DNA from: a virus | Length of the DNA: 64,000 nucleotides | IMG/VR virus record: IMGVR_UViG_3300032083_003901 | Location: 9,891-73,890 of that record | Strand: one strand, 5' to 3' | Shown: piece after piece, positions 49,176-63,529 of the stretch | How the letters are laid out: each line of letters begins with the position of its first letter | Position numbering within the stretch: the stretch's first letter is position 1 | The notes under the pieces: generated by a model | What the model was told of the DNA's origin: nothing | Seen by the model: only the letters and a program-made list of their open reading frames with translations | Databases searched by the model: none | Program-made: the position numbers and the translations under genes

Positions 49176-49185
49176 GTGATATTTA
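49176..49185 (+). promoter_or_regulatory. Putative late promoter GTGATATTTA
   Basis: Exact copy. Confidence 0.7.
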
Positions 49186-49205
49186 GAGTCACAGACGAGG
49201 TAATC

Positions 49206-49799
49206 ATGCGCAAAAACTCACGAAAGCTTCTCAGAGAAGCTAAACAAGATTTAGATCTAGCTGTTGTTAAAGCACTCTGCAGTGCTCCTCTTCGGCCAGT
49301 TGAACTTGACGAACTCTTAGCTGTATCGGAAAGCGATCTCATGAGAGATCATGATTGTGATCTGTACATGGCAGAAAAAGTCAAGCAACACGCCAAAAGA
49401 GAACAGTATCGCCTTCGAGCTCAGGATCTTTACACTCCTGCTGAAGATACTGAAGAGCTCTATCCCCAAAAGCCTTACACTCGAACTTCACCCATGAACG
49501 AAAATGCCGGCGAGGGCAGAATGCTTGACTACGGCCATGTAGTGAGTGATTCTCGAGAAGGTAAGATGGCAAAAAAGGCGCTGCGTAACATTGCGGTCGA
49601 CGCTTACCGATTGCATCAGCTGCTAAACGACGAAGACGACCTGCCGCAGTGGTGCCACTACAAAATTGCTCAGTCTGATGCAATGATGAATTCTGTGCGT
49701 GAATACCTCGAGTACAAACTCGAGCGTCAGGGTGAAGACACGCCCGGCGAGCTTGAGGTCTTTGTGGGCAATGAGCCCGAGGAGGGTTTCAATGTCTAA
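49206..49799 (+). CDS. Conserved phage hypothetical protein
   Basis: EGKMAK...LPQWCHYKIAQ....SVREYL domain, familiar from large myophage proteins. Confidence 0.6.
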   Translation: MRKNSRKLLREAKQDLDLAVVKALCSAPLRPVELDELLAVSESDLMRDHDCDLYMAEKVKQHAKREQYRLRAQDLYTPAEDTEELYPQKPYTRTSPMNENAGEGRMLDYGHVVSDSREGKMAKKALRNIAVDAYRLHQLLNDEDDLPQWCHYKIAQSDAMMNSVREYLEYKLERQGEDTPGELEVFVGNEPEEGFNV

Positions 49800-50358
49800 T
49801 CAAATCAATGAATGTCCAGCTAGCGAAGCAGCAGAGGCACAGTTCGTAGCAAAAGCCCTAGGAGGCCTACAGCAAGACGGCGGGAAGGAACTTCTAGTCA
49901 CACGCCTGAGCCAATACCTCGGCATGCTCAGGGCAATGCACCTTTGGTTCCACGGAGCTCATCACGTAACTCGCGGTGCTGCCTTTGGTGGAGACCACGT
50001 TGACGTCTTCGGACGCATCTACGAAGCCATTCAGGCAGAGATGGACGGAGCTGTTGAAAAAGCAGTTGGCGTCACCGGCGATGAGGGCATTGCTTGTCCT
50101 ATGCACATTACACAGTTAGCTCTGCAAGCGATGAGCAACTATCCATCACCACCTGCTATTTCTTCATTGGCCATGGCTGCTGTCGGCCTCGAGATGGAAA
50201 AGCACTACATTGAAATGGTGACACAGATGTTTGAAGAGCTCGAAGGTCACGGCGCACTTTCCCTAGGCCTCAATGACTTCTTGGCAGCGTCGGCCAATGC
50301 ACATGAGACGCACGTTTACCTTCTACAACAAAGAGTCAAGACCGAGTTGGAGAACTAA
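49792..50358 (+). CDS. Ferritin/Dps-like protein
   Basis: HGAHHVTRG..F.GDH..F..IYE....D..VEK; HETHVYLL. Confidence 0.7.
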   Translation: MSNQINECPASEAAEAQFVAKALGGLQQDGGKELLVTRLSQYLGMLRAMHLWFHGAHHVTRGAAFGGDHVDVFGRIYEAIQAEMDGAVEKAVGVTGDEGIACPMHITQLALQAMSNYPSPPAISSLAMAAVGLEMEKHYIEMVTQMFEELEGHGALSLGLNDFLAASANAHETHVYLLQQRVKTELEN

Positions 50359-51240
50359 ATGAAAATCACGAAGCGTCAGCCAAGAAGAATCATTAGGGAA
50401 AATAGATCCCAAGAGATATTGAAATTAATATATGACAGAATTTCAGATGTTGGTTTTGGCGACGAAGATGAAGAAGATTTCGAATCTGTTAAAATTGAAC
50501 TAGAAGAAGATGGTCTAGCCACGCAAGAAGAACTAGATCAACTCACCTTTGATCAATGGAAAGAGCTTAAAGAATCGAAGACAATGAAAATCACAGAAAG
50601 CAAACTGAGACAAATTGTTCGAGAAGCTCTTCTTATTGAGCGCAGAGAGATGCTCGATCTTGTCACGAGCCCATACGAGGATTTGACAGACATCAACGTT
50701 TTAGCAAACTATGCGCTTAATAACGATATGCAGGGTGCTCTCAAAGATCCAGTGCTCCGAAGCTATATCGAAAAAAATCAAGCGCAGACTTTAGTTGATA
50801 ATTCTTACGAGTATCTAAAGTATGTGGGCGACACAAATCAGGGATTTCTTCCAGCTCCCGCGGGATGGAACCTGGATAAAGTGTACGACTTTGTTGAGAA
50901 GTTTGAAAACGAAGCTTTCAAATCATTCAGCCGACAAAAAGGCCAATCACATGATGCTCTCCCAGCAAAGAAAGAAAGAGAGATAATTGGAAAAGCGCTT
51001 ACAATGTCTTACGTGATGCCTGATGACATTAAGCAAATCGAATTCCAGATACGCAGATCGGGTGGAAAACCTACTAACATCAATATCGAAAATCCCACCA
51101 TGATGTCAAACATCACTGCACGAGAAGTGGAAAGACAGGGCCTAACATTGGACGACATTGCTAGGGTTCTACGGGATGGTGGTGCAAAAGAAAGCAAGAA
51201 AAGACCAGCGCGAGATTATACACCTCCAGCTTACGATTAA
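50359..51240 (+). CDS. Hypothetical protein with two KIT-tag motifs
   Basis: MKITKRQPRRIIRE at the N-terminus and MKITESKLRQIVRE at 50584. Confidence 0.7.
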   Translation: MKITKRQPRRIIRENRSQEILKLIYDRISDVGFGDEDEEDFESVKIELEEDGLATQEELDQLTFDQWKELKESKTMKITESKLRQIVREALLIERREMLDLVTSPYEDLTDINVLANYALNNDMQGALKDPVLRSYIEKNQAQTLVDNSYEYLKYVGDTNQGFLPAPAGWNLDKVYDFVEKFENEAFKSFSRQKGQSHDALPAKKEREIIGKALTMSYVMPDDIKQIEFQIRRSGGKPTNINIENPTMMSNITAREVERQGLTLDDIARVLRDGGAKESKKRPARDYTPPAYD

Positions 51241-51251
51241 GGATTTAAGAA

Positions 51252-51977
51252 ATGAAAATCACAAAGCGACAATTAAGAAGAATTATCAAAGAAGAAAAAG
51301 CCGTGCTGGAACAGTCGTGGCGCCAGAATCCTGCAAAGATCCGTCTCGAACGCCGCAAAAGAGACCGACAGAGAATGATTGACACAATGACCTTCGAACA
51401 ACTAAAAAGAAGAGCATTTGATTCGGCCCTAGGCATTCAGGGAAGGCTCAACACAGGTCAGTATGAATACGAAGACATTTGGGAAGCCGAGATCCCTATG
51501 CTAGCTGATTATATCGATGCTGCAAAAATAAAGGCAGCTGAAGAGGGTGTTACTTATGATGACATACCAGAAGTCCGACACAATGGTGGCCTTATAGATT
51601 TCAGTCGCTATTCTTTGGGATTGCCTGCTTCAATGAAGGAGAGCAAGATGAGAATCACAAAGCGACAACTCAGAAGAATCATCAAAGAAGAACTGCATCG
51701 CTTAAACGAGTCTGCCGCCAATAGCCGCATGGCACAGAGGCTTCGCGACTTTAAAGAAAGCGGATACACCGAAGAAGAAGCTGCTCGAGAAGTCTACGAA
51801 GACTATGACACCATTGAGTTCCTGCGTAAAATAGCGGCGGAAACCAAGGGTACGGATCCGGACTTCTCTTCCTACGTTTACGAAGTCGCTTACCAAGCCG
51901 ACGAAATCCGTAGCGACGGCAGCACGATGTTCGATGAGCCCGACCGCTACGGTGGCAGCCGATACAGTCGCTACTAG
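51252..51977 (+). CDS. Hypothetical protein with two KIT-tag motifs
   Basis: MKITKRQLRRIIKEE at the N-terminus and MRITKRQLRRIIKEE at 51648. Confidence 0.7.
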   Translation: MKITKRQLRRIIKEEKAVLEQSWRQNPAKIRLERRKRDRQRMIDTMTFEQLKRRAFDSALGIQGRLNTGQYEYEDIWEAEIPMLADYIDAAKIKAAEEGVTYDDIPEVRHNGGLIDFSRYSLGLPASMKESKMRITKRQLRRIIKEELHRLNESAANSRMAQRLRDFKESGYTEEEAAREVYEDYDTIEFLRKIAAETKGTDPDFSSYVYEVAYQADEIRSDGSTMFDEPDRYGGSRYSRY

Positions 51978-51994
51978 GAATGAGTGGAGGTACC

Positions 51995-52483
51995 GTGAAA
52001 ATCACCAGAAAGCAGCTCAGAAGAATTATCAAAGAGGCCATTGACGTAGTCAATGCCGAGACTGGCGAGGTCCTAGAACTAGGCGACGCAGCTGGTACCA
52101 ATCCGCCAGAAGCTGCGTGGCCTGATCTCAAACGTCGACTGGGATTGCAGCCAGAATCTGAGGGGTCGGATTACGCTGAGCTAAGCGGCGAAGACTTCAT
52201 GAGGCTGAGCGATGAGACCGAGGGCAAGAGACGCTCGCGCCATTACAGAGCTGAAGAAAAAAGACTAGACCCAGAAATGTTGCTGAATCGATTGAGCGAT
52301 TGGGCACGAGATGCAGCCGATGACTGGATGGCCGACAACCCCGGACAAGACATCGGTGACGTTGCTTATGACCTAGCCACGGGCGCCGAGTTCGCTTTCA
52401 AGCCTGACGAGTGGCGGACCATGTCATACGAGTTTGACACCGATCGTGACTTTCACGATTTCATCGTGAACTCCATGGTGTAA
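51995..52483 (+). CDS. Hypothetical protein with KIT-tag motif
   Basis: GTG start after GGAGG: (M)KITRKQLRRIIKEA. Confidence 0.7.
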   Translation: MKITRKQLRRIIKEAIDVVNAETGEVLELGDAAGTNPPEAAWPDLKRRLGLQPESEGSDYAELSGEDFMRLSDETEGKRRSRHYRAEEKRLDPEMLLNRLSDWARDAADDWMADNPGQDIGDVAYDLATGAEFAFKPDEWRTMSYEFDTDRDFHDFIVNSMV

Positions 52484-52610
52484 TAAAACACAATCCCCAA
52501 AGAGTCCATGCTAAAAGTTTTTGCAATTTATTTGTTAGGCGTTGCTGTCGGCATAATAATCGACAACATATTTTGGTACGGCGTAGCCCAACTCAGAAAG
52601 AACGAAGATT

Positions 52611-52868
52611 CTACTTGAATATTGACTCTTTTGCAGTTCTAAAAAGTCTAGGCAGGAAAGATTTCTTAAGACTAAGAAGTCTTTCGAATTTGGCTCGAGA
52701 GCGATGTTCAACGTATAAGGTAGTTGGCTTCTTGATCTCGCCATCAATCAGTTGATCGCTGAAGTCGTAGAACTTGGCTTTTGCCGGCGGAGCGGCATTG
52801 GCTGCTGATGCAACACTTAGAGAAGCAAGAATTAGCAGCGCAGCGATCGCAATTTTCAACTTTTTCAT
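52611..52868 (-). CDS. Secreted CglF/GltF-like (adventurous gliding motility) protein
   Basis: Signal peptide, then YDFSDQLIDGEIKKPTTLYVEHR..F..L...KSF, matching the DFxDxxIxGExxKPxxxYVxxR pattern. Confidence 0.6.
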   Translation of the reverse strand: MKKLKIAIAALLILASLSVASAANAAPPAKAKFYDFSDQLIDGEIKKPTTLYVEHRSRAKFERLLSLKKSFLPRLFRTAKESIFK

Positions 52869-53560
52869 TATTTCTTTTTCTTGGCTTTTGACTTCTTGAC
52901 GACTGCCCAAGGCTTCGAAGGCGTTGCTGCATTGACACGGGCCATTGCCCACTGGTGTTGAGTCATTCCCTTTCGAGAGCCGGAAGAAGCCCAAGCGGCC
53001 AGACCTTTTTTGTATTCAGCTTCCACGGATCCGGGAGTGAATCCTCTTTCTTCCGCTTTCTTTCGAAGGGTTGCCTTTGTCTTTTTGCTCAACTCCTCTT
53101 GCAGGATTTCACTGATCATTTCACGCAGATCGCTTTCGGTCATTCTTTTGTAAGACTCTTTCTTGGTGTCTTTGCGCGGCTTGTTTTTCCAGCCTTTTTT
53201 CTGCCGTTCTTGCTTTTCCATTCTTTCGCGGCGACGATAGGCTCTTGCAATTCTTTCGGGATCGCCACTGGCTAGGTCGGCTTTTGTTGCGTCTAGTTGC
53301 TTGTCTCTCTTTGAGCCTTGAGGGGCTCCGTACTGTCTGAGATGCGGTTTGTCCGACTCGTCCATGCTATCTGCTTCGTCGACAATTTTTTTAGCCTTTT
53401 CCTTGGACATTTTCACTGGATATTCTTTGTCGCCAATCTTTACTGACTTCTTGCCGTCCATTGCTGCTTGTGCAATCTTATAACTGAATTCGTTTTCAGC
53501 CAACTCTTCTTCCTGTAGCACTTCGTTCAACAATTGCTTGACTATGTCTTTTATATCCAT
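52868..53560 (-). CDS. Conserved viral hypothetical protein (DUF5824-like C-terminus)
   Basis: LRKKAEE.G......YKKGLAAW..G.R.G.TQHQWAMARVN; TESDLREMISE tag variant. Confidence 0.6.
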   Translation of the reverse strand: MDIKDIVKQLLNEVLQEEELAENEFSYKIAQAAMDGKKSVKIGDKEYPVKMSKEKAKKIVDEADSMDESDKPHLRQYGAPQGSKRDKQLDATKADLASGDPERIARAYRRRERMEKQERQKKGWKNKPRKDTKKESYKRMTESDLREMISEILQEELSKKTKATLRKKAEERGFTPGSVEAEYKKGLAAWASSGSRKGMTQHQWAMARVNAATPSKPWAVVKKSKAKKKK

Positions 53561-53577
53561 GACGGATTTCTCCTCTT

Positions 53578-53606
53578 GTGTAATGTTTCATTAAGTATGT
53601 TATAAT
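53578..53606 (+). promoter_or_regulatory. GTGTAA-N17-TATAAT promoter for uvsE, overlapping a divergent ATACTTA late-like motif
   Basis: Exact motif; the minus strand reads ATACTTAA at 53591-53598. Confidence 0.65.
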
Positions 53607-53633
53607 GGTACAGAATTCAAGCTTGGAGCCAAA

Positions 53634-54575
53634 ATGTCAAACAATCGATTCGGTTACTGTTGCATCAACCTCACACTGCAAAAATCAGAAAAGATCATGA
53701 CTAACCGCACGATGCGACGTAAGACATTTGATTTGAAGGGCCTAGGTTACACATCACAACTGGCTTTCGATAACACCAGGGACCTCATACGCATCTTAGA
53801 ATGGAATGCTGAGCATGGCTTCGAAGTGTTTCGCATGACATCCACTCTCTTTCCTTGGGCCAGCGAGTACGAGATGGACGACTTGCCAGACATTGAAGCA
53901 ATTCGAGAAAACATGCGCAAAGCTGGCGAATTGGCCCGCAGCACTGGACAAAGGTTATCTTTCCATCCCGGGCCTTTCAATTGCCTAGCTTCTCCTAAAG
54001 AAAACGTGGTGCTCAACTGCATCAAAGACCTCAGCATCCATGGCGAACAGATGGACATGTTTGGCATGCCACGAGACCACAATGCTAAGATCAACATTCA
54101 CATTGGCGCCGCTTATGGCGATCGAGAGGCAGCGCTGGACACGTGGTGCCGCAATTTTGAGCGCTTGCCCGAAAGCGTGCGAAGTCGGCTGACGGTCGAG
54201 AATGACGATCGTAAAAATTTGTATTCTACCAAAATGCTGTACGAGTCAGTTTACAAGCGCCTAGGCGTTCCTATCGTTTTTGACTCGCATCACTTTCAGT
54301 GCGGACCACAGGACTCTTCCTACGAGGAGGCGTTCCTAATGGCTTACGAAACCTGGCCTAACGGCATTCGTCCCGTGTGTCACCATTCAAACAGCAAAAA
54401 ATTTCACGAAGATCCGACGTGTCGCAACCCAGCTGCGCACTCAGATTACTACTACGAGCCATTTGACTCTTGCGGCAAATCAGTCGACGTTGCGATGGAA
54501 GCCAAAGCCAAAGAGTTAGCTGTATTTGACTACCTTCAAAAATTTGAGCCCGCTGAGGAAAAACAGGCTGCGTAG
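53634..54575 (+). CDS. uvsE: UV damage endonuclease UvsE/UVDE
   Basis: GYCCIN, FRMTS, RLSFHPGPF, INIHIG, RLTVENDD, VFDSHH, AHSDY, MEAKAKE. Confidence 0.95.
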   Translation: MSNNRFGYCCINLTLQKSEKIMTNRTMRRKTFDLKGLGYTSQLAFDNTRDLIRILEWNAEHGFEVFRMTSTLFPWASEYEMDDLPDIEAIRENMRKAGELARSTGQRLSFHPGPFNCLASPKENVVLNCIKDLSIHGEQMDMFGMPRDHNAKINIHIGAAYGDREAALDTWCRNFERLPESVRSRLTVENDDRKNLYSTKMLYESVYKRLGVPIVFDSHHFQCGPQDSSYEEAFLMAYETWPNGIRPVCHHSNSKKFHEDPTCRNPAAHSDYYYEPFDSCGKSVDVAMEAKAKELAVFDYLQKFEPAEEKQAA

Positions 54576-54586
54576 TTGCTTTTGGC

Positions 54587-54596
54587 GTGATATTTA
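54587..54596 (+). promoter_or_regulatory. Putative late promoter GTGATATTTA
   Basis: Exact copy. Confidence 0.7.
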
Positions 54597-54625
54597 ATCG
54601 CACAAAGCAAACCCAAGGAGCCACA

Positions 54626-54898
54626 ATGCCCTCTATAACTGAATCGCAGCTTCGTGCAATGGTCCGCAACGAGCTCAAACAGAGAATGCTCACCGAGCAA
54701 GTCAAGTCTAAGACAGATCTAAAACAGCACTTTCTCAGCACGTTGGATAAGATTGGCGAAGACGTTGACACAGTTGAGATTCAAGCTCTAGCTCAAATTT
54801 TAGACAAGGCAGTCGAAATTGCCGCAACAAAAAACCTTAAGACCCTGGCACCAAAAGTCATTGCTGCAATGGGACAAAAAGCCGGACTAAAACAGTAA
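54626..54898 (+). CDS. Hypothetical protein with tag variant ITESQLRAMVRNE
   Basis: AAGGAG RBS. Confidence 0.65.
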   Translation: MPSITESQLRAMVRNELKQRMLTEQVKSKTDLKQHFLSTLDKIGEDVDTVEIQALAQILDKAVEIAATKNLKTLAPKVIAAMGQKAGLKQ

Positions 54899-54903
54899 AA
54901 TAA

Positions 54904-55677
54904 ATGCTAACAGAATCACAGATCAGAGCGAGAATTCGCACGCAGATGAGAACTGCGCTACTAACCAGCGATGTTGCTAAGCTCAGAGAACAAAGAGAAA
55001 AAGAAGCTGTTGAAAAAATTGCTTCTAACTTGAAGGCTCTAGCAGCAGCTTTGGATAGCGAAGTTGAAAATCTGGAGTCGATGACTTTTGAAGAGTTCGA
55101 AAATGATCAAACGATTGAAGAGTCTGTTGATCACAATCGATTGAACGAAAGTATGCTAGTGACTCTTTACGGTGCGGTTATATCCGCATCTGGCATCGCT
55201 AAGATTCTAGGTTATATGGCCAAAGGTATTGCAAAAGTTTTAAACAGACTAGGCCTGGATAATATAGACCCAGAAAAAGAAGGCAAGACATTTTTCGAGA
55301 TTAGCGAGTACATTCACCATCTTTACTTGGGCGCTCTGAAAAAACTTGCTGCTAAAATGGGAATTCCGGAAAACAAACGAAGCTTGGCTGCAAACGTCAT
55401 GTTTGGTGTTTTGCTTGGTGCTGCTATGTCCTTTACTGGCATGGAACTCTATTCTGCAATCAAAGGTGGCAAGTTAGCTTTATCCTTGGGTGAAGGTGGC
55501 ATGGCCGGAATCAAGATTGGCGAAGGCGCTGAGACCGGTGCTAACATATGGACTTTAGTTCAAGAAGCCTTTTCTTCAGTGCCTGAATTGGCAGGCACAA
55601 TTGTTGATACGGCTGAAACTACTGAAGAAGTTTTGGATGCGATTGATGCAGTTGCTAACATGTCGAGTGCGTCATGA
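54904..55677 (+). CDS. Hypothetical protein with hydrophobic helices and tag variant LTESQIRARIR
   Basis: 257 aa; Gly/Ala-rich hydrophobic segments. Confidence 0.65.
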   Translation: MLTESQIRARIRTQMRTALLTSDVAKLREQREKEAVEKIASNLKALAAALDSEVENLESMTFEEFENDQTIEESVDHNRLNESMLVTLYGAVISASGIAKILGYMAKGIAKVLNRLGLDNIDPEKEGKTFFEISEYIHHLYLGALKKLAAKMGIPENKRSLAANVMFGVLLGAAMSFTGMELYSAIKGGKLALSLGEGGMAGIKIGEGAETGANIWTLVQEAFSSVPELAGTIVDTAETTEEVLDAIDAVANMSSAS

Positions 55678-56189
55678 TTCGCAAAGTATTTAGCCACCTC
55701 TTTGAGCAAGTTGAAGAGGCAGATTTTGTAGATTCTACTGCGATACTGCGGCGCCTGTCCGATGAAGGCGTTGGTGAGCCTGCTGGGAAAGCCAATTTTG
55801 AACAAACGGACATGGGTTTGATAATCCGCTTGAAAGCAGAAGGATTAGAGCCAGGCGAGCACGGAGTCCATATTCACGAAAATCCGAATGTAGGCCCGGG
55901 AGAAAAAGACGGCAAAATGCAAGCAGGTATTGCAGCCGGCGGCCATTACGACCCAGAAGGCACAGGTAAACACTTGGGCCCTTATGGTTCAGGACACCTA
56001 GGCGATCTTCCTAGAGCATACGCTTTAGAAGATGGCACATTAGATGCTATTCTCCTTGCGCCCAGGCTGTCTCTGAAAGATGTTCGCAATCGATCGATTA
56101 TCATCCATGCCGGCGGTGACAACTATTCTGATAAGCCAGAACCCATGGGTGGCGGCGGATCAAGGATTCTAGGCGGAGTAATAGAATGA
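55674..56189 (+). CDS. sodC: Cu/Zn superoxide dismutase
   Basis: HGVHIHE, GGHYDP, HLGP, HLGDL, IIHAGGDN, GGGGSR; no signal peptide. Confidence 0.93.
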   Translation: MIRKVFSHLFEQVEEADFVDSTAILRRLSDEGVGEPAGKANFEQTDMGLIIRLKAEGLEPGEHGVHIHENPNVGPGEKDGKMQAGIAAGGHYDPEGTGKHLGPYGSGHLGDLPRAYALEDGTLDAILLAPRLSLKDVRNRSIIIHAGGDNYSDKPEPMGGGGSRILGGVIE

Positions 56190-57730
56190 AAAAGAAATAT
56201 TCTGGTTCTCAACCTGATCAGCAATATGTGCCAGCGACTTCATCAAATTTGTTTCTCGACCGCGAAGGCCACGAGAACGAGTGGGAGCCAGAGTACTTGC
56301 GAAAGATTAGTGACTACTACAAAAACATGGGATTGATTGAAGAGCAAACGTTGCCCATTCCCAGAGATCTTTATGGCGGCCTGGAAGATGTAATTGAGAA
56401 GTCAGGCTTTCACTTAGAAGACAACGAGTATGCTGACTTTTACAGAAATCTCGAGCAGACTGATGCAGCCCGCACGCTGAACAGGGCGCTCAACAATTAT
56501 TTTAAAGAGCTTAACATACCGATCAAGTTCGCTGTCATTAGCATCGATGAATTTTCTTCTCCCAAATTGCAGGACAATGATAACCCTAATCGCTTTGTAG
56601 TGAGCGCCGGCGCCGGCCAAAACTCTAGAGGCAAAGGCGTTGTCGATCTCTATGCTGTGGTGTCAGTTGAAGACTTCGATAGTTCATTGGTTGATCCCAA
56701 AGTGGTGGCCAAAGAAGTGGCAACCGTCATTCGCCATGAAATGGTTCACGATCGTCAATACGATTCTCTGGCTAAAGACATGGGAATATCCAGGAAGGCA
56801 GCCAAGAAGAAGTTTGAGGAGTGGGGGCTGATTCCGCCTGAAGGCGCGCCAAGAAAAGACTATCTCAAGTCGCACATTGAGATCGATGCTTTCGGTCACG
56901 AGTTTGCAGACAGACTAGCACAGAAATTCGGTTTAGAAAAAGCTGAGCTCATGGTTGCAACTGCAGATGTCGCAGATCTCGAGAAGTTAGCTAATGACCT
57001 TGATGCTGAGATGAGCGACAATTTCGTTGAGTATTACAAGGACCATCCGAAAGAAAAGTTTACCAATCGATTGCAGAAGAAGATTCGCAAGTACTTAAAG
57101 CTCTTCAGGTCTGAGGGGATTTATGAGTCGAAATTTGAAAGGAAAGAAACCATGAAAATTACAAAGAATCAACTTAGAAGAATCATTAAAGAAGCAATGG
57201 ACTACGATCCACTTGGAGATGCCGGTGTTCCTCATGTCGGTGCTGGTCCCAAGTATGCCTTGGCCTTTGTCGATGCCTCGTACGGTGACCGAAGAATGGA
57301 ACTAGTCGTCAGAGAAGAGGATGCTGAACTGGCTCGCAAGGTAATGAAAAAGATGCGAAAGCAAGGCCAGGTATCAGGTGTGCAACCGACTCGACAAAAG
57401 TTTGACCCACGTGATGTCACTACCAAAGAAGACCTGATGCGAATGCTGAGCGAAGCTGCTACAATGCCCAGTCGAAGCCGCATGAAAGAACTCAAGGATG
57501 CTGCATGGGCAAAAGTAAGCGAGCGAGTTGCCTTTCTTCCATACGACGTGAGATCAGTCAGAATCGTACCGCACCAGAACCTGAGTGACAATGAACGCGT
57601 GGAGCCCGAGTTCGAGGACCAGATGATGATGCGAGTCTACGTCAAGGATCGAAACGGAAGAAATCCAGTCTTCGATGTGGTCATGAATCTAGCAAGCGGA
57701 CGTGCCGAAGGCATTTCAAAAGTAAAATAA
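56186..57730 (+). CDS. Multi-module protein: zincin-like HEMVH domain plus an internal KIT-tagged module
   Basis: IRHEMVHDRQ..EIDAFG; ESKFERKETMKITKNQLRRIIKEA. Confidence 0.7.
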   Translation: MKKKYSGSQPDQQYVPATSSNLFLDREGHENEWEPEYLRKISDYYKNMGLIEEQTLPIPRDLYGGLEDVIEKSGFHLEDNEYADFYRNLEQTDAARTLNRALNNYFKELNIPIKFAVISIDEFSSPKLQDNDNPNRFVVSAGAGQNSRGKGVVDLYAVVSVEDFDSSLVDPKVVAKEVATVIRHEMVHDRQYDSLAKDMGISRKAAKKKFEEWGLIPPEGAPRKDYLKSHIEIDAFGHEFADRLAQKFGLEKAELMVATADVADLEKLANDLDAEMSDNFVEYYKDHPKEKFTNRLQKKIRKYLKLFRSEGIYESKFERKETMKITKNQLRRIIKEAMDYDPLGDAGVPHVGAGPKYALAFVDASYGDRRMELVVREEDAELARKVMKKMRKQGQVSGVQPTRQKFDPRDVTTKEDLMRMLSEAATMPSRSRMKELKDAAWAKVSERVAFLPYDVRSVRIVPHQNLSDNERVEPEFEDQMMMRVYVKDRNGRNPVFDVVMNLASGRAEGISKVK

Positions 57731-57777
57731 AACTATACTCTGTTTTACTTCTTTGTTGGCAAACAAATAATCAAAGA

Positions 57778-58035
57778 ATGGATTCGTATACAGATAGAAT
57801 CGAACGTTTGAGAGAAGAAAATGGATCTGGCGATGTCAATAGAATTGCAGATGCCATGGACGATGCACTTGAACTTTTAGATGAATTGGTCGACGAACTT
57901 GAATCAACTTGGCAAATGCTGGACGAGTTGAAAGCATCTGAAGTTTCAAATCACAAAGAAGCTCAGATGGAAACTATTGACAAAGTGCTCTTGCGCACCA
58001 AGAGCAAACTAATGACGAAAGTAGGTAAAGCATGA
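57778..58035 (+). CDS. Hypothetical coiled-coil protein
   Basis: 85 aa. Confidence 0.55.
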   Translation: MDSYTDRIERLREENGSGDVNRIADAMDDALELLDELVDELESTWQMLDELKASEVSNHKEAQMETIDKVLLRTKSKLMTKVGKA

Positions 58036-58241
58036 GACAAGTTAGAGTTGGCGACAAGGTCAGAGCGTTTTTAGATCCAAACATTGCAGGCGAAGTCGCG
58101 GAAATTTTTTACAAGCAGTCGGCTGGCGTCATGTTGATGGTCGGCGGCGTTCCTCCTGTAGAAGCATATGCTAAAGTCCTATTGTCCAACGGGCAGGTTG
58201 CAATTGTAAGAACTACTGAGCTCTCTATTGTCGATCGATAG
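58032..58241 (+). CDS. Hypothetical SH3/KOW-like small protein
   Basis: VRVGDKVRA beta-rich pattern. Confidence 0.5.
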   Translation: MRQVRVGDKVRAFLDPNIAGEVAEIFYKQSAGVMLMVGGVPPVEAYAKVLLSNGQVAIVRTTELSIVDR

Positions 58242-58552
58242 TGTGGCACATTTACGTTGTTGAATGCTGCGACGGTTCTCTTTATTGCGGCATTTCAAAA
58301 GATGTGCAGTCCCGCGTGCAAAAACACAATTCAGGCAAGGGCGCAAAGTATACTAGGTCTAGACTACCTGTCAAGCTAGTTGCTTCTGCGCCTGTTAGTG
58401 AAAGCAAATCGCTGGCACTAAAAGCTGAGTATCGATTTAAAAAGTTGCACAAAAGTAAAAAAATAGTTTATATTCGTGCGGGGTTTGAGAATTTCTTATC
58501 TCAAAATGCTGTAATGGACGCTCATGATCCAGGTATAAACAGCGGCGCATAA
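58241..58552 (+). CDS. GIY-YIG nuclease (UPF0213-like)
   Basis: IYVVECCDGSLYCGIS..R..HNSGKGAKYTR.R.P, ALKAEY. Confidence 0.88.
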   Translation: MWHIYVVECCDGSLYCGISKDVQSRVQKHNSGKGAKYTRSRLPVKLVASAPVSESKSLALKAEYRFKKLHKSKKIVYIRAGFENFLSQNAVMDAHDPGINSGA

Positions 58553-58792
58553 AACAAGGGCAAATTGCGTGCCAGCACTCTTTCCTAGGCGTTTGAGCAG
58601 AACTAAGCCTAATATAACCAAAACCATCTTGCAAAGGTAGAATAAACTTGGATGAATCTCTAGTAGGTAGTCCATGAGGGGATTTTGTTCTGTTGCGAGC
58701 TTGTTTCCCACGCTATAGTGCGTCAGCACTGCATCGATCAGATTCAGCACGAAAATATAGAAGAACAGGAAGTTTGCCTTGATGGCGTTCAT
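58496..58792 (-). CDS. DUF5658-like membrane protein
   Basis: LNLIDAVLT...EQNPLM, three hydrophobic segments. Confidence 0.65.
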   Translation of the reverse strand: MNAIKANFLFFYIFVLNLIDAVLTHYSVGNKLATEQNPLMDYLLEIHPSLFYLCKMVLVILGLVLLKRLGKSAGTQFALVLCAAVYTWIMSVHYSILR

Positions 58793-58796
58793 GCCA

Positions 58797-59141
58797 TTAA
58801 GTATTTTTCCAAAAAATCTGAATCGCCATAATGACAAAAGATAAAAATATGCATGTCATAGTTTTTGGATTGAACGGGGACTCATTGAGATAAAAGTATG
58901 TCATGACAGGAAAGACAAAGTACGATGCTCCAAATGCCAACAGTCTAACAGTCCAAAGGCTTTGAAATTGGGCATGTCCTAATTTTGTCACGTAAAAAAC
59001 CAATATGTTTGCAGGTATACCAATGATTACAGCCCACAGCAAAGCGTAAGTCTGATTTTTTATGATAAGTTGAAGATTTGACGCGTACCATATGGTTGTG
59101 TGCATCATGATTAACAGACAAGAGAGTATAAAGAGTTGCAT
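58797..59141 (-). CDS. Four-TM small membrane protein (DMT/SMR-like)
   Basis: Four hydrophobic helices, YLNES..K. Confidence 0.55.
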   Translation of the reverse strand: MQLFILSCLLIMMHTTIWYASNLQLIIKNQTYALLWAVIIGIPANILVFYVTKLGHAQFQSLWTVRLLAFGASYFVFPVMTYFYLNESPFNPKTMTCIFLSFVIMAIQIFWKNT

Positions 59142-59202
59142 GCTTGGTGCCTTGAAAAACTTGTAGCAAAGTGATAGTATATCAACGAAGCTAATTAATC
59201 AC

Positions 59203-59685
59203 GTGGAAGAAGAAGTGCTTGAAACAAAACCGCTAGTAAAAGTGCTCAGCACTGGGTACGAAACACTGTACCATGCTTCTTGGCAGGATGCACTAAAGGA
59301 TGTGTACACCGGTCGATTAGAAGTCGTTGAAACGCATCCGACTATTCGAATTGGAACCGTCGACGGCCTCGAGCCTTTTCCAATTACGGTGCGCTTCAGG
59401 CAAGGTGTTTTTCTTGGTAAAATCAAGATCCCACCGAAGACCAGGCGGCCTAATAGAAAAAATATTTTTATTCGTGACGAAGCGAGATGCCAGTACTGCC
59501 TTAAAGACCTCGATTTCTATGACTCTACCATTGACCACGTGTTGCCAAAATCCAGAGGGGGCGCAGATGCCTGGTCCAACTTAGTGCTTTGCTGTGGGCC
59601 ATGTAACATCAAAAAAGGAAGCCGCACTCCTAGCGAAGCAGGAATGACACTCTTGCGCAAAGAAGGTTATACTGCCCCGAGGTGA
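59203..59685 (+). CDS. HNH endonuclease (McrA-like)
   Basis: RDEARCQYC, TIDHVLPKSRGG..WSNLVLCCGPCNIKKG. Confidence 0.9.
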   Translation: MEEEVLETKPLVKVLSTGYETLYHASWQDALKDVYTGRLEVVETHPTIRIGTVDGLEPFPITVRFRQGVFLGKIKIPPKTRRPNRKNIFIRDEARCQYCLKDLDFYDSTIDHVLPKSRGGADAWSNLVLCCGPCNIKKGSRTPSEAGMTLLRKEGYTAPR

Positions 59686-59691
59686 TATTTA
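59682..59691 (+). promoter_or_regulatory. Putative late promoter GTGATATTTA
   Basis: Exact copy. Confidence 0.7.
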
Positions 59692-59711
59692 GTCTCCATG
59701 GAGGTGGTCAA

Positions 59712-60356
59712 ATGAGTATCAGTAATGATTCATATGACAGGATTCTAACGCTCGGTCGTGAGCTCTATGACGTAGAAGTTTCATTCAAAAACGAGAGCAA
59801 GCTTATGCGTCTACTTTCTTGGTTGTTGTTCTTCAATAAGAAGTTCATGACCAACTACATTACCGTGATCGGAAAGACAGTTTACTTTCCTTCGCGCGAG
59901 TGGCTCGAAAAGAACAGAGAGTCTGCAGCGCGAATAATGTGTCACGAGATGGTTCACATCGGTGATGAAAAAATGGTAGGGTCTGCAGTCTTCAGACTCA
60001 GCTATCTCTTTCCGCAGTGCATGTCGATCTTTGCACTAATGGGCTTTTTCGTCGGCCCTATCGCTCTAATCTTCCTGCTTTTCTTGCTTCCCCTGCCGGC
60101 GCCTTTCAGGGCCTTCTGGGAACTTAGGGGCTACGCGATGACAGACGCAGTGTTGTTCAAAAAGTACAACCAGTTTGCAGACGACGACTTTCTCACCAAA
60201 CAATTCACCACATCGAAGTACTATTTCATGTGGCCCATGAAGAAGACTCTATGGACTGAAATCGAGAAAAATCGCGAGAGAATTAAGTCCGGAGAGATCC
60301 ACAAAAAAATAATTCATTCAAAGCGCATTTTATCAGCAATCTCAGAAAAAAGCTGA
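59712..60356 (+). CDS. Membrane-associated zincin-like protein
   Basis: CHEMVHI, TM stretch, WELRGY; GGAGG RBS. Confidence 0.6.
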   Translation: MSISNDSYDRILTLGRELYDVEVSFKNESKLMRLLSWLLFFNKKFMTNYITVIGKTVYFPSREWLEKNRESAARIMCHEMVHIGDEKMVGSAVFRLSYLFPQCMSIFALMGFFVGPIALIFLLFLLPLPAPFRAFWELRGYAMTDAVLFKKYNQFADDDFLTKQFTTSKYYFMWPMKKTLWTEIEKNRERIKSGEIHKKIIHSKRILSAISEKS

Positions 60357-60552
60357 CGGGGGCTCTATAGTTATAAACAAGGGAGCGGCGATGGAAATAG
60401 TTGGCGAAATCTTGTTTTGGTCTATATTCTCAACAAGTGCAATTTTAGTAGTTTTTCCCTCGTTTTGCTCATCGCTTTTTTTCAAATGGCTAGATCGTGT
60501 GATCGAAAAATCAGAAGGTGACGCTACGTCTGACTGGTAGGCATTCAACCGT

Positions 60553-61107
60553 TTGAGAGGGGCCGTGAGCCACTACGGGAGATCGTTGGGTGAAGAGGCG
60601 CTAAACGCATGCACGCATATTCCTGTCGCGGTGTACGCCGGACATGGATTGCTGTTAGGGCACCGCTGTCAAGTTTTTCTGCTCTTTTCGCTTCTTACAT
60701 TCGGTTTTTCTTTCCTGTATCACATTAGCACGAACATTAAAGCAAAGTCTTTCTTCCGTCGCTTAGACATTGCTTCAATTTTTTGGCTTATACCGGCATC
60801 GGTTTACGACTTTCTTCCCATTTATATTGGAGCCAGCCTGCTGCTTTTGTGTTGCGTCCTTTCTTTGCCGGTAATTTTCCAATCCACGCCATCGCGATTT
60901 ACAGACACGGCCTTGATTATCTTATCGGCCGCGGCCTTGATGGCAGCATTCGCGTTTTCAGAAGTTTGGATGCCAATTGCTTTTGGTCTTTTGTTTTATT
61001 CTTGCGGTCTATTTTTCTACTTTAGCAGTGCTAAGTGGTCACACACGTTTTGGCACTTATTCGTTGTTGCTGGTTGGTTCGTTCATTTTTGGGTGCATGT
61101 AAAATGA
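60553..61107 (+). CDS. Hemolysin III/PAQR-family membrane protein
   Basis: EEALNACTH, SFLYH, RRLDIASIF, HTFWHLFVVAG. Confidence 0.8.
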   Translation: MRGAVSHYGRSLGEEALNACTHIPVAVYAGHGLLLGHRCQVFLLFSLLTFGFSFLYHISTNIKAKSFFRRLDIASIFWLIPASVYDFLPIYIGASLLLLCCVLSLPVIFQSTPSRFTDTALIILSAAALMAAFAFSEVWMPIAFGLLFYSCGLFFYFSSAKWSHTFWHLFVVAGWFVHFWVHVK

Positions 61108-61298
61108 GCAATGTCAAAGAAACAAAGGACTATTTTTCGAAAGGAGACTTCGTGACTCATTCGAAAATCGGCTCGCAGGTCGGCGTCATAGTTGAATTTG
61201 TCAGCACGCGAGCCGGGCAATGCGCTTGGGTTGACTACGGAGATTTCAAAAGACTTGAGTTCGTCAAGGATATTTTGCCGATTAGAAGAGATATTTAG
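61104..61298 (+). CDS. Hypothetical small protein
   Basis: FSKGDFVTH SH3-like; coupled start. Confidence 0.4.
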   Translation: MSNVKETKDYFSKGDFVTHSKIGSQVGVIVEFVSTRAGQCAWVDYGDFKRLEFVKDILPIRRDI

Positions 61299-61319
61299 CA
61301 CCGTGACGGAGGATTGTAG

Positions 61320-61667
61320 ATGCAAGCATTAGGAAACTGCTATGAGGCCGCAGCTCAATTTGTCATGGACAAATGCATGTTTGGTGGCGACTGCCCCTAC
61401 ACCATAGTTCACGCCGAAGTGGCCGGGCAAGGACAGTTAGAAGGCACCAACTTTGGACACGCTTATGTGGTTGATGAAAACTCAGGCAACGTAATCGATC
61501 GGTCTAATGGTCGCAATGTTGTCATGCCACGTGCCATTTATGAGGCGATAGGTGCCATTAAACAGATAGGAAACTATCACGAATATACTTGGAAAGTGGC
61601 AAGGCTAAAGATGGTTGAGCATGAGCACTACGGACCTTGGGACCTTGAAACGAGCACAGGGCTTTGA
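61320..61667 (+). CDS. Putative papain/transglutaminase-like Cys-His-Asp protein
   Basis: GNCYEAA..GHAYV..VID; GAGATATTTA upstream. Confidence 0.5.
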   Translation: MQALGNCYEAAAQFVMDKCMFGGDCPYTIVHAEVAGQGQLEGTNFGHAYVVDENSGNVIDRSNGRNVVMPRAIYEAIGAIKQIGNYHEYTWKVARLKMVEHEHYGPWDLETSTGL

Positions 61668-61668
61668 A

Positions 61669-62307
61669 ATGAGAAAAGAACCACAAATATTTACCAGACT
61701 TCAGAAGCAAGATCAACCGATAGATCTAGAGACCCTTAGCGATCTTGAAGCTGAGGTGCAACTAGAGTCTCGCCAACGCATCAAAAAAATCGTCGAGAGC
61801 GTGATGTCAGAGGCGCCCGAAGTTGAAGACGTCGGCTATTCTCCCTTGGAGTATTTCGGCATTCAGAGTCCTTCGCACGGTAAAAAAAGACTGATCATTG
61901 TTGACAAAGATGAGCCTGACGCAAAGGAAGGCGAACGATATTATAAAACCTTGACGAAATATCGACTTAGGACGAAGGGCGGAAGGCGAATGCTTAAAAA
62001 GCCCGTTTTGGATGAAGTGATTCCAGGTGCTCCGCCACACACAGTCGGGTTTATCGATTACCACATCGACATGAAACACGATAACGGCGATCCGAAAGGC
62101 GTCTACCTGGACTATCTTCATGTCCGAGGAGATCAGCGAGGCAAAGGCCACGCTCGTCTTTTGGCCCAAGAGATCGTGAATCGACACCCGACGATTGAAT
62201 ATCTGGATTTTGGCAAAATGATGGCACCAGAAATTGGTCACCTCATGAGATGGTTCAAAGACAAATACAAAGGAAAGATCGATGTCATCGGCAGAATCTG
62301 GTACTAG
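61669..62307 (+). CDS. GNAT-family acetyltransferase domain protein
   Basis: YLDYLHVRGDQRGKGHARLL acetyl-CoA motif; N-terminal LESRQRIKKIVES. Confidence 0.65.
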   Translation: MRKEPQIFTRLQKQDQPIDLETLSDLEAEVQLESRQRIKKIVESVMSEAPEVEDVGYSPLEYFGIQSPSHGKKRLIIVDKDEPDAKEGERYYKTLTKYRLRTKGGRRMLKKPVLDEVIPGAPPHTVGFIDYHIDMKHDNGDPKGVYLDYLHVRGDQRGKGHARLLAQEIVNRHPTIEYLDFGKMMAPEIGHLMRWFKDKYKGKIDVIGRIWY

Positions 62308-63529
62308 ACAAATAGAGATCGGCGGCTACCCCTTTTCGGTTGAAGTTGCCGAGACGCCTGAGCAAAAAGCCCGCGGCATGATGCACAGAAAGTACATGCC
62401 GAACGGCACTGGAATGCTATTTAAGATGGGAGGTGGACCTGCTCGTTTTCACATGAAAAACACCCACATCCCCCTGGACATCCTTTACCTTGATGCCAGT
62501 GGAGTCATAATTAAAAAGGACGGGATGCGTCCGCACGTCGGAAAAAGTCACTGCGATGGTGACGTTCACCACGTGATCGAGCTCCCAGCAAACACTTGCG
62601 ACGAACTGGCCATCAAGGTGGGTGACCAATTGAACTTGAACGAATCAAGCAGAATGCTCAAAGAAGATTACGAAGACATTGTGAAAGTTGGTGTTCGATT
62701 GCGCGTCAATCTAAGGCGCAGAAATCTCATGGACATCTTGACCGACATTCGGGGACTTCCAAACGTTATCACTGTTTCCCAAGAGGGACAGCTTCAAACA
62801 GCACCCGAAGGGAAAAATATGGCAAACGTTTCCATTGGCTTCAACGACGATGCAAGGTTTGATGTGCCGGACATGGAATCAGGTTTGCTTAAGATCGACG
62901 GCGTCGATATGGTTATGGTTAGATCCTACAACGATCAGAAATACGATCCCAAGGCTCTTTACGGCTCGAAAAATGAAAGTGTATTGAGAGACATTGTCCG
63001 TGAGTCTCTGCGCAACTCGTGGGAAAATCCGCAAAAGATAAGTGACATTGTCTATCGTCCATGGTCTAAAAAGTTCTACGAGCAAGTCAGGCAGATCAAG
63101 CAAAGAGTGCACGAAAACGCAAGTGACCTGGATTGGTTCGAGCGCGAAATGCTATCTACAGACATCGGAGAGTTTGGCCTTTACGAAGGCAGCCGAGTCC
63201 CTCTGGACATTCCGATTCCAGCAGAGTTGGTAGAAGCAGAGTACCAAGGCAAAAAAGTTGAGCTCGATAAACCAAAGCGCGGCGGCACTGCAAAATTCTA
63301 CGTTTATGTTCGAGACCCTAAGACGAAGAACGTTAAAAAAGTGCCTTTTGGTGCAGAAGGCATGTCAGTGGGAATTGAAGATCCAGAGAGAGTCAAGTCT
63401 TTTGTCGCTCGTCACAAATGCAAAAGCAAAGAAAAGGAAGACAAAACCAAGCCAGGATATTGGTCTTGTCGTCTTCCGAGATATTGGAAGTCTCTCGGTT
63501 TGAAAAAGACTTCTAAGCAGTGGTGGTAA
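62282..63529 (+). CDS. Multi-domain protein: DUF192 + unknown + conserved myophage C-terminal domain
   Basis: VEVAETPE..RGMM.R..GMLF..FHMKNT.IPLDI; modules separated by LNES/NES/LVE; KFYVYV..SFVARHKC..GYWSCR. Confidence 0.75.
   Translation: MSSAESGTRQIEIGGYPFSVEVAETPEQKARGMMHRKYMPNGTGMLFKMGGGPARFHMKNTHIPLDILYLDASGVIIKKDGMRPHVGKSHCDGDVHHVIELPANTCDELAIKVGDQLNLNESSRMLKEDYEDIVKVGVRLRVNLRRRNLMDILTDIRGLPNVITVSQEGQLQTAPEGKNMANVSIGFNDDARFDVPDMESGLLKIDGVDMVMVRSYNDQKYDPKALYGSKNESVLRDIVRESLRNSWENPQKISDIVYRPWSKKFYEQVRQIKQRVHENASDLDWFEREMLSTDIGEFGLYEGSRVPLDIPIPAELVEAEYQGKKVELDKPKRGGTAKFYVYVRDPKTKNVKKVPFGAEGMSVGIEDPERVKSFVARHKCKSKEKEDKTKPGYWSCRLPRYWKSLGLKKTSKQWW

Follow-up and report, generated by a model that had tools for sequence, protein, structure and literature searches.

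The capsid targeting sequence (CTS) on the internal proteins of bacteriophage T4 was reportedly described by Mullaney and Black in 1996. This 10-residue sequence is sufficient for packaging, and T-even phages' internal proteins are diverse outside it (PMC9026906, PMC3012670). N-termini of this kind are seen in T4 IPII and IPIII (MKTYQEFIAE|A, from NC_000866), in gp24 (MAKINELLRE|S) and in Alt (MELITELFDE|D). Proteases of the gp21 family cleave after Glu (PMC5694885), and they do so as well in the jumbo phages phiKZ, 201phi2-1 and SPN3US, where many head proteins are processed and where the SPN3US paralogues gp53 and gp54 have an identical 15-residue N-terminus with a cleavage motif (PMC5694885, PMC7411985). 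Here we examine a 64,000-nucleotide stretch of the viral record IMGVR_UViG_3300032083_003901 (the window), in which a short basic peptide recurs on unrelated proteins, and compare it with these systems.

Tag copies in the window

The tag is a 14-residue basic amphipathic peptide, M-K-I-T-K-R-Q-L-R-R-I-I-K-E, with a helical hydrophobic moment of 1.72, compared with 0.93 in shuffles. The original prediction had placed near-identical copies at 50359, 50584, 51252, 51648, 51995 and 57152, and all six were confirmed by regular expression and HMM. With a relaxed leader HMM, scores were 32.5 bits at 51648, 32.3 at 51252, 30.8 at 57152, 28.7 at 51995, 21.3 at 50359 (which carries L8P), 14.8 at 50584, and 8.2 at a looser copy at 54626, while noise, defined by the top chance match in the six frames of the window, reached about 5 bits.

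A promoter-like 10-mer, GTGATATTTA (49176..49185, plus strand), heads an operon (49203-52483) that includes three leader ORFs. ORF 50359-51240 has the leader MKITKRQPRRIIRE at its N-terminus (50359..50400, plus strand), with a start that follows GGAG directly after the previous stop. Its leader is followed by a 61-aa acidic module and by a fused junction, L-K-E|SKT, with the leader variant MKITESKLRQIVRE from 50584 (50566..50625, plus strand); this variant heads a 218-aa module, orthologous to a separate gene (53599-54252) that begins MKITKCQLRNIIRE in the related genome G001. ORF 51252-51977 begins with the canonical leader MKITKRQLRRIIKE (51252..51293, plus strand). Its first module, conserved across 23 database homologues, is predicted by AF2 to be a helical bundle (pLDDT 85-91) in which the leader begins helix 5-24. 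The fused junction of this ORF, M-K-E|SK (residues 130-134, predicted to be disordered), and the internal leader MRITKRQLRRIIKE, which starts at 51648 and has its own AAGGAG ribosome binding site (RBS), lie at 51633..51689 on the plus strand, and the module behind them varies from member to member among the homologues. In ORF 51980-52483, orthologous to G001 51760-52281 (40% identity), the leader VKITRKQLRRIIKE (51995..52036, plus strand) lies near a start that is either GTG at 51995 or ATG at 51980, the latter adding MSGGT, and is followed by an acidic 150-aa body with a pI of 4.2.

A second copy of GTGATATTTA (54587..54596, plus strand) heads the operon 54626-57730. Within ORF 56186-57730, the internal leader MKITKNQLRRIIKE (57152..57193, plus strand), preceded by the RBS-like run AAAGGAAAG, heads a basic module of 192 aa, fused downstream of an HExxH domain, and the junction, R-K-E|T, is without a hydrophobic P3 residue. 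The HExxH part matches a separate G001 gene (282952-283782) and had no match in Pfam; it was rejected as cargo of this leader because it sits upstream of it. None of the cargoes could be assigned to a Pfam family.

Looser variants had also been proposed. A "TES" type with the common core [ILVMF]-T-E-[ST]-x-[LIM]-[RK] is shared by the copies at 50584, 54626 and 54904 and by a minus-strand copy at 53143, and these variants are real, since the window contains five instances of the core where 0.23 would be expected, and 300 shuffles gave a maximum of 2. The 90-aa ORF at 54626..54898 (plus strand), beginning MPSITESQLRAMVRNE, probably starts with a divergent leader of this type. The start of the 257-aa ORF at 54904..55677 (plus strand), MLTESQIRARIR, is possibly another, with no Glu at its end and no HMM support. 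An internal variant, M-TESDLREMISE at ∼53143, lies in a minus-strand ORF (52868..53560) that matches DUF5824 in Pfam, and reached no more than 2.5 bits with the canonical HMM. Two other proposed variants were indistinguishable from chance: NESVLRDIVRE, from the DUF192 gene, gave 3.7 bits, and LESRQRIKKIVES, from the GNAT-like gene, had no HMM match. The tagged bodies are mutually unrelated, as had been claimed, but tagging of the GNAT and DUF192 proteins is unsupported and the zincin (HExxH) domain lies on the wrong side of its leader.

Position and boundary of the tag

Fewer than 30 open codons were found upstream of 246 of 286 copies (86%), indicating that these are true N-termini, and 97% of copies start with ATG or GTG and show a Shine-Dalgarno-like peak. 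Most copies are separate genes, with only about 7-9% fused. In 30 aligned leaders, M1, I3, T4, Q7, L8, I11, I12 and E14 were at least 90% conserved, and conservation ended exactly at E14, within I-[KR]-E, with unconserved residues beyond it; at this end, position 12 (I, V or L) and position 14 (E) were each at least 90% conserved. Among 288 copies, first and second codon positions were nearly fixed while third positions had 1.0-1.8 bits of entropy, with six codons used for Leu8, six for Arg6, and two or three each for Ile, Gln and Lys. These synonymous differences between copies indicate that the peptide, not the DNA, is what is conserved.

Internal copies had been described as following an ES dipeptide and beginning with Met. 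A G-rich peak at -12 to -8 nt was equally present where the upstream frame of a copy is closed, so that ES before Met is mostly a Shine-Dalgarno sequence read in frame. Nevertheless, hydrophobic-x-Glu is truly enriched at translated junctions, of which 59 of 115 (51%) had it 2-4 residues ahead of the internal Met, compared with 7 of 119 untranslated controls (6%), making it about eight times commoner (Fisher p = 2e-15). When junctions were counted by independent upstream-module clusters, the values were 13/36 and 4/133 (p = 3e-7). About half of the fused junctions, including the one at 57152, are without hydrophobic-x-Glu, and the fused forms retain an internal RBS and start codon.

Distribution and head genes of relatives

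The tag characterizes a clade of uncultured marine phages of ∼290 kb. A motif HMM scan of the window and its relatives, which the original prediction had proposed as a check, recovered the copies in the window and 31 in the complete relative G001, where they head tandem, mutually unrelated small ORFs. In public data, 6,764 protein clusters bear the tag; no match to it was found among Pfam families, PHROG families, cultured phages or searchable papers. The 200.5-257.8 kb region of G001 and the window are colinear, with amino-acid identities of 23-75%. Tagged bodies are small and fast-evolving, and in G001 they are mostly acidic (pI below 6 in 26 of 32, median 4.3). Related genomes have different bodies, which are shuffled as cassettes, with exchange seemingly at the tag.

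Head genes were examined in the same clade. Among 16 tag-bearing records that are 100 kb or longer, 15 encode the gp21-type S77 protease (PF03420), and the gp23 capsid protein (PF07068) was present in all nine records tested. The window's own 74-kb record, estimated to be 20% complete, contains no head genes, and its colinearity with G001 suggests that this phage likely has both head genes and protease. At the capsid maturation site, T4 gp23 FLTE|AEIGG aligns to VLRE|ANSISTGGG in G001, and L-[RK]-E is kept in nine genomes. At, or just past, the position adjoining the protease gene is a conserved head-module protein of ∼140 aa, whose N-terminus reads MAK[IV][ST][KR]xxLKx[IL][IV]KE (MAKITKRMLKGIVKE in the genome G010) and matched the tag HMM in register in 9 of 9 genomes, at 6.4-16.8 bits, while none of 2,862 control segments reached 10 bits. 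This protein has consecutive hydrophobic-x-E sites (KE|CLVE|ILAE) and is mostly disordered in a predicted model. A likeness by eye between the tag and the N-termini of capsid and scaffold proteins was unsupported by HMM.

The 10-mer GTGATATTTA occurs in the window six times on the forward strand and never on the reverse, always ∼20-35 nt upstream of an RBS and ATG, and contains ATATTTA. This shorter motif lies 18-45 nt before portal, scaffold, sheath and baseplate genes in G001 (13 sites, compared with 2 for the control). The main array of tagged genes in G001 (47.6-57 kb) is set amid early-type, sigma-70-like promoters and not among the structural genes, and ATATTTA at the canonical distance is absent from it. 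In another relative, G015, the terminator of the capsid gene is followed by three leader genes, with no room for a promoter between. As signs of late expression together with the head genes, these observations are indirect and point in both directions.

Discussion

Two elements of the proposal as first made gain support from the sequences, namely a modular tag at the N-terminus of unrelated cargo and Glu-specific processing, through the I-[KR]-E boundary, the gp21-type protease, the conserved L-[RK]-E, the fused junctions and the tag-like N-terminus of the head-module protein; the GNAT and DUF192 cargoes are unsupported, and the ES dipeptide is largely an RBS read in frame. The reading that we favor, by a little better than even chances, is that the tag is an expanded, T4-like capsid-targeting propeptide that is also used in multi-cargo polyproteins. 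The tag would dock diverse small cargo proteins on the scaffolding core of the prohead, after which the gp21-type protease of the head would strip off the tag with a cut behind Glu14 (I-[KR]-E|). In fused cassettes, this protease would be able to separate the modules at a second hydrophobic-x-Glu just ahead of the internal tag, while the internal ATG and RBS possibly yield an additional, separate short product. Shuffling of the cargo genes, cassette by cassette, takes place at the conserved tag in this reading. The tag itself, its N-terminal position, boundary and spread, the protease and capsid genes of relatives and the Glu-site statistics are observed; we infer that the cargo is docked, cleaved, packaged and delivered along with the DNA. 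A fuller version, which we hold to be plausible but somewhat short of an even chance, is that this clade has a recombination-shuffled library in which one basic 14-residue tag would bring dozens of cargoes per genome to the prohead, the head protease would free them, including from polyproteins with paired Glu sites, and, together with the DNA, they would reach the host as a first-strike set of proteins directed against it.

Several observations count against the propeptide reading. The tag is without similarity to the T4 CTS and is strongly basic, the bodies are mostly acidic, and there are at least 30 cargoes per genome. The main array of G001 has an early-type setting, and about half of the fused junctions are without hydrophobic-x-Glu. 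In addition, the record containing the window has no head genes, so that its link to the protease is through relatedness only, and no cultured relative has the tag.

Alternatively, the tag would be a shared docking or oligomerization helix with no role in the virion, binding a common hub (a protein of host or phage, a nucleic acid or a membrane) or bundling the many small acidic proteins into hetero-oligomers for host takeover or anti-defense in the infected cell. The peptide is indeed a basic amphipathic sequence at a predicted helix start, the small, acidic, fast-evolving bodies resemble many early phage accessory proteins, no Pfam families are found among the cargoes, and the main G001 array lies under sigma-70-like promoters away from the structural genes. 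We nevertheless consider this explanation rather unlikely, although the strongest of the alternatives, because it leaves unexplained why conservation stops exactly at I-x-E, why hydrophobic-x-Glu is enriched at translated junctions, why a head protein adjoining the protease has a tag-like N-terminus, and why nearly all of the large tag-bearing contigs examined have a gp21-type protease. That head protein could itself be taken to suggest that the tag marks core or scaffold-like structural proteins, built into the prohead and then degraded and expelled in the manner of T4 gp22, gp67 and gp68, rather than cargo delivered to the host. The conserved head-module proteins with tag-like N-termini, the serial hydrophobic-x-E sites and mostly disordered model of the 140-aa protein, and the acidity of T4 core proteins (gp67 has a poly-Asp/Glu tail), which most tagged bodies share, are consistent with such a role. 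We judge it improbable, since unrelated, genome-variable, cassette-shuffled bodies suit accessory cargo better than structural parts, and the first module of ORF 51252-51977 is a confidently folded helical domain in its model.

It might also be supposed that the conserved stretch is a nucleic-acid element, either for translation initiation (a downstream box) or for recombination, and that the peptide is a by-product. The coding sequence of the tag is very A-rich and always preceded by an RBS, cassette exchange seems to happen there, and adjacent Glu codons have opposite preferences (GAA 277 and GAG 11 at Glu14; GAG 147 and GAA 46 at the next Glu). However, third codon positions vary freely next to nearly invariant first and second positions, and internal copies that have lost Met still preserve the peptide, making this explanation very improbable.

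If the propeptide reading is true, the proteins that abundant, unculturable ocean phages package and inject could be listed from sequence alone, as thousands of small proteins without assigned function that likely include anti-defense factors, and in jumbo phages the T4 capsid-targeting principle would prove to be scaled up ∼tenfold and widened to polyproteins. For loading proteins into phage capsids, a packaging tag that is short, portable and removable by a protease is also of practical interest.

Comparison with known systems

The closest parallel is the CTS of T4 IPI, IPII and IPIII and the 10-residue propeptides of Alt and gp24. Like the tag, these are short N-terminal sequences on unrelated proteins, with hydrophobic-x-Glu, the gp21 protease site, at their end; T4 and the tag-bearing clade both encode a protease of the gp21 family and a capsid protein of the gp23 family, and in both a conserved tag is found on polymorphic cargo genes. 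In contrast, MKTYQEFIAE and MKITKRQLRRIIKE have no sequence similarity, with M-K and the terminal Glu alone in common, and judged on this comparison the tag is an analogue of the T4 CTS, not a homologue. The tag has 14 residues and is strongly basic, whereas the CTS has 10; a genome here can have as many as 31 tagged genes or more, compared with a handful in T4; the tagged bodies are mostly acidic, while mature T4 IPII and IPIII have a pI of ∼9.6; and the replication genes of the clade are not T4-like, since the polymerase is of the DnaE type. To our knowledge, fused proteins with several tags have no T4 counterpart, and no known case comes anywhere near 30 or more cargoes per genome.

Compared with phages of the phiKZ/SPN3US type, the clade has T4-type head genes. 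The proteases of phiKZ, 201phi2-1 and SPN3US prefer A/S/G-x-E, whereas in the clade, as in T4, P3 is one of I, L, V and M, at the tag end, the junctions and the capsid protein site. Propeptides in these phages are mostly longer than 100 residues, with no universal tag, and a propeptide of their type was rejected for the tag on the basis of both the P3 residue and the 14-residue length. Finally, the fused forms resemble viral polyproteins that a virus-encoded protease cuts, in having several modules per reading frame joined by short linkers that bear a protease motif. They differ in that most copies of the tag are separate genes, that the fused ones keep an RBS and start codon, and that processing here would occur inside the prohead.

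A repeated N-terminal tag on unrelated modules

Regular-expression matching together with two profile HMMs confirmed the 14-residue basic amphipathic tag at 50359, 51252, 51648, 51995 and 57152 with scores of 21-32 bits, and the copy at 50584 scored 14.8 bits with the profile HMM, compared with ∼5 bits for the top chance match of the leader HMM in the six frames of the window. All six near-identical copies of the original prediction were therefore recovered, while the looser variants proposed with them held only in part. The window has five matches to the sub-variant core [ILVMF]-T-E-[ST]-x-[LIM]-[RK] (0.23 expected; maximum of two in 300 shuffles), among them those at 50584, 54626, 54904 and, on the minus strand, ∼53143, whereas the copies proposed in the DUF192 and GNAT-like genes scored no better than noise with the HMM. 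The sequence KITESELRQIIKEE represents the same TES-type sub-variant, common among database copies of the tag.

Among 288 distinct copies, taken from the window, its complete relative G001 and 66 IMG/VR loci, codon entropy was 1.0-1.8 bits at third positions and first and second positions were almost fixed, indicating that selection acts on the peptide. Because of this synonymous variation, we rejected the reading of the conserved stretch as an RNA- or DNA-level element. The adjacent Glu codons at leader positions 14 and 15 (e.g., window 51291-51296) display opposite preferences over the 288 copies (277 GAA and 11 GAG at Glu14; 147 GAG and 46 GAA at the next position), which may reflect a nucleotide-level constraint on top of that on the peptide.

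The tag is in essence N-terminal: fewer than 30 open codons lie upstream in 86% of 286 copies, and only 7-9% are truly internal. Aligning 30 leaders showed conservation of 90% or more at M1, I3, T4, Q7, L8, I11, I12 and E14, and no conservation beyond E14. The modules behind the tag, with a median of 101 residues, are mostly acidic (median pI 4.3) and share no relationship with each other, in agreement with the proposal of one tag on unrelated cargo. Within the family of ORF 51252-51977, module 1 is conserved and the module after the internal tag varies from member to member, indicating that cassettes are exchanged at the tag. In an AlphaFold2 model of this ORF (pLDDT 75), the tag starts a helix, module 1 forms a helical bundle, and the junction (residues 130-134) is predicted to be disordered.

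Distribution of the tag

The source record, of which the window covers bases 9891-73890, is 73,890 bp long and 20% complete (CheckV). Genes in the window include those for a DnaE-type polymerase, DnaB, RecA, ribonucleotide reductase, a type II topoisomerase and GroEL, and no structural genes were found in it. The window shares its gene order with G001 (293,409 bp, with terminal repeats) over 200.5-257.8 kb of the latter, at 23-75% amino-acid identity. In G001, 31 tag copies score 15 bits or more; all are on the same strand, grouped into one array spanning 47.6-57 kb, another spanning 284.5-286.5 kb and a pair near 267 kb. With up to three mismatches allowed, a DNA-pattern scan of four large relatives (G001-G004) detected 12-27 copies per genome, and none with the reversed control pattern. 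Among 1.84 billion proteins, a profile of 30 leaders found the tag in 6,764 cluster representatives at E ≤ 0.001, 241 of them at 1e-10 or better, and each of the best 150 listed contains two to four copies.

No cultured phage matched a tagged ORF or the 22-residue tag in a tblastn search of 50,697 phage records, and megablast of window 49-58 kb gave no match. Pfam and PHROGs contained no family for the tag or cargo of the window's tagged ORFs and ten G001 cargo proteins, a literature search did not find the tag strings, and ESM Atlas returned just unnamed viral clusters or low scores for the 218-aa cargo module and a 140-aa head protein. The aquatic 'moraphages' described in 2025, in a report that does not mention the leader (PMC12619734), may be the same lineage as the tag-bearing phages or a neighbouring one.

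Glutamate sites at fused junctions

Internal tags had been described as following an ES dipeptide and beginning with Met. Between -12 and -8 nt, a peak rich in G and poor in C is alike in copies with and without an in-frame upstream stop, as is start-codon usage, so that E, G and R at positions -4/-5 are largely the ribosome-binding site (RBS) read in frame, and the internal copies look like fused genes retaining their own start. However, the RBS alone is insufficient to account for hydrophobic-x-Glu at truly translated junctions, where it is found 2-4 residues before Met in 47 of 89 cases in one data set, 8 of 25 in a second, and 59 of 115 in a less redundant set. The rates were 4/133 and 7/119 in controls, which were conceptual translations upstream of N-terminal copies and carry the same RBS constraint. 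The enrichment (p = 2e-15 overall) gave p = 3e-7 once collapsed to 36 independent upstream-module clusters. In the window, the residues before the internal tag are L-K-E/SKT-M at 50584, M-K-E/SK-M at 51648 and R-K-E/T-M at 57152.

The head module of related phages

Of 16 tag-bearing records that are 100 kb or longer, 15 encode a gp21-type protease (PF03420; 171474-172085 in G001), and a gp23-type capsid protein (PF07068) is encoded in 9/9 records tested. The T4 gp23 maturation site FLTE/AEIGG aligns with VLRE/ANSISTGGG of G001, L-[RK]-E is kept at this site in nine genomes, and mature gp23 PDB chains have 456 residues, consistent with a cut at residues 65/66. The nine head modules share the gene order portal, ∼283 aa, protease, usually a small beta-rich protein, ∼140 aa, ∼92 aa, two more proteins, an acidic gp22-like scaffold, and the capsid protein; for the G001 head-module proteins, Pfam and PHROGs gave no family besides the protease. 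The N-terminus of the 140-aa protein, MAK[IV][ST][KR]xxLKx[IL][IV]KE, fits the leader HMM in register, at 6.4-16.8 bits in 9/9 genomes, and none of 2,862 control segments reached 10 bits. The likeness of the ∼92-aa protein (...KLTPALLKKLVLEEKAKL...), with scores of -1.8 to 12 bits, is only suggestive. In the related record G015, the capsid gene terminator is followed directly by three leader genes.

By-eye likenesses of the tag to KFTLNQLTEGIRQ at the capsid N-terminus and to VTPRIRSLIEQ in the scaffold protein were dropped because they had no HMM support. The G001 gp22-like scaffold and a 40-residue leader, co-folded from alignments of 9 and 30 rows, respectively, scored 0.00 in an uncontrolled run, which is evidence neither way. 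The gp23-type major capsid genes are tandem in G001 (176269-178167 and 178261-180150) and in the related genome G005 (L100; 8611-10521 and 10583-12466), and single in the other seven genomes; the first 122 residues of the G001 copies are identical and the middle parts divergent.

Promoters and neighbouring genes

Two promoter-like classes occur in the window. The sigma-70-like GTGTAA-N17/18-TATAAT, with a perfect TATAAT, lies at 16503, 20755, 42479, 46219, 48497 and 53578, all on the plus strand, with a variant at 5313. Its -35 hexamer is unusual, one site lies in front of the sigma-factor gene and another in front of the UvdE gene, and its G001 counterpart, TCTGTAAA ... TGGTATAAT, is in non-structural regions. 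The other class, the 10-mer GTGATATTTA, has six exact forward matches and no reverse match (33579, 39611, 49176, 54587, 59682 and 63826), each followed after ∼20-35 nt by an RBS and ATG, and stands at the head of both leader operons.

The exact 10-mer is not conserved in five relatives, and its ATATTTA core is the sole part linked to structural genes. The core lies 18-45 nt upstream of 13 G001 genes, versus 2 for the control, and 11 of the 13 fall within the structural region at 60-200 kb, among them the portal, scaffold and tail-sheath genes and a baseplate wedge gene, which suggests that GTGATATTTA is a late-type promoter, one that the phage's own sigma factor may read. One G001 site heads the region before array 2, but the main array has no ATATTTA at the usual distance, so the timing evidence is mixed. 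The T4 late promoter TATAAATA is not enriched in G001 (8 forward, 8 reverse) or the window (0 forward, 1 reverse).

A Cu/Zn superoxide dismutase (PF00080, 1e-27; 55674-56189), whose 37-residue N-terminal extension contains L-F-E and Q-V-E, is in the same operon as tagged genes, and a UvdE UV-damage endonuclease (PF03851, 7e-54) is upstream of it at 53634-54575. Genes downstream of the leader operons encode a GIY-YIG nuclease domain (58241-58552), an HNH endonuclease (59203-59685) and a haemolysin-III-related membrane protein (60553-61107). The DUF192 protein follows the leader array in both genomes (window 62282-63529; G001 286576 onward). A helix after its domain is conserved (ESVLRDIVRESL; in G001, ESILRKSIRLLLRES), and its C-terminal part matches phrog_7595.

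Comparison with T4 internal proteins

On balance, we lean towards the tag being a capsid-targeting propeptide of the T4 kind, present in far more copies and also used in fused proteins with several cargoes, from which we infer that tagged proteins would be docked, cleaved, packaged and delivered. The main alternative, a helix through which proteins acting inside the cell would dock or oligomerise in common, appears rather unlikely to us, as it leaves unexplained both the Glu-site statistics at the junctions and the tag-like protein of the head module.

The propeptide reading has its precedent in T4, where the 10-residue capsid targeting sequence (CTS) alone loads foreign proteins into the head, and its processing is governed by residues 8 and 10; with Asp as the final CTS residue, targeting persists but processing is blocked (PMC9026906). 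Proteases of the gp21 family cleave after Glu (PMC5694885), and the propeptides read from NC_000866 are MKTYQEFIAE/A (IPII, IPIII), MAKINELLRE/S (gp24), MELITELFDE/D (Alt) and MLKEQLIAE/A (gp22). Apart from the CTS, the internal proteins of T-even phages are diverse (PMC3012670). On the propeptide reading, the tag is an analogue and not a homologue of the T4 CTS.
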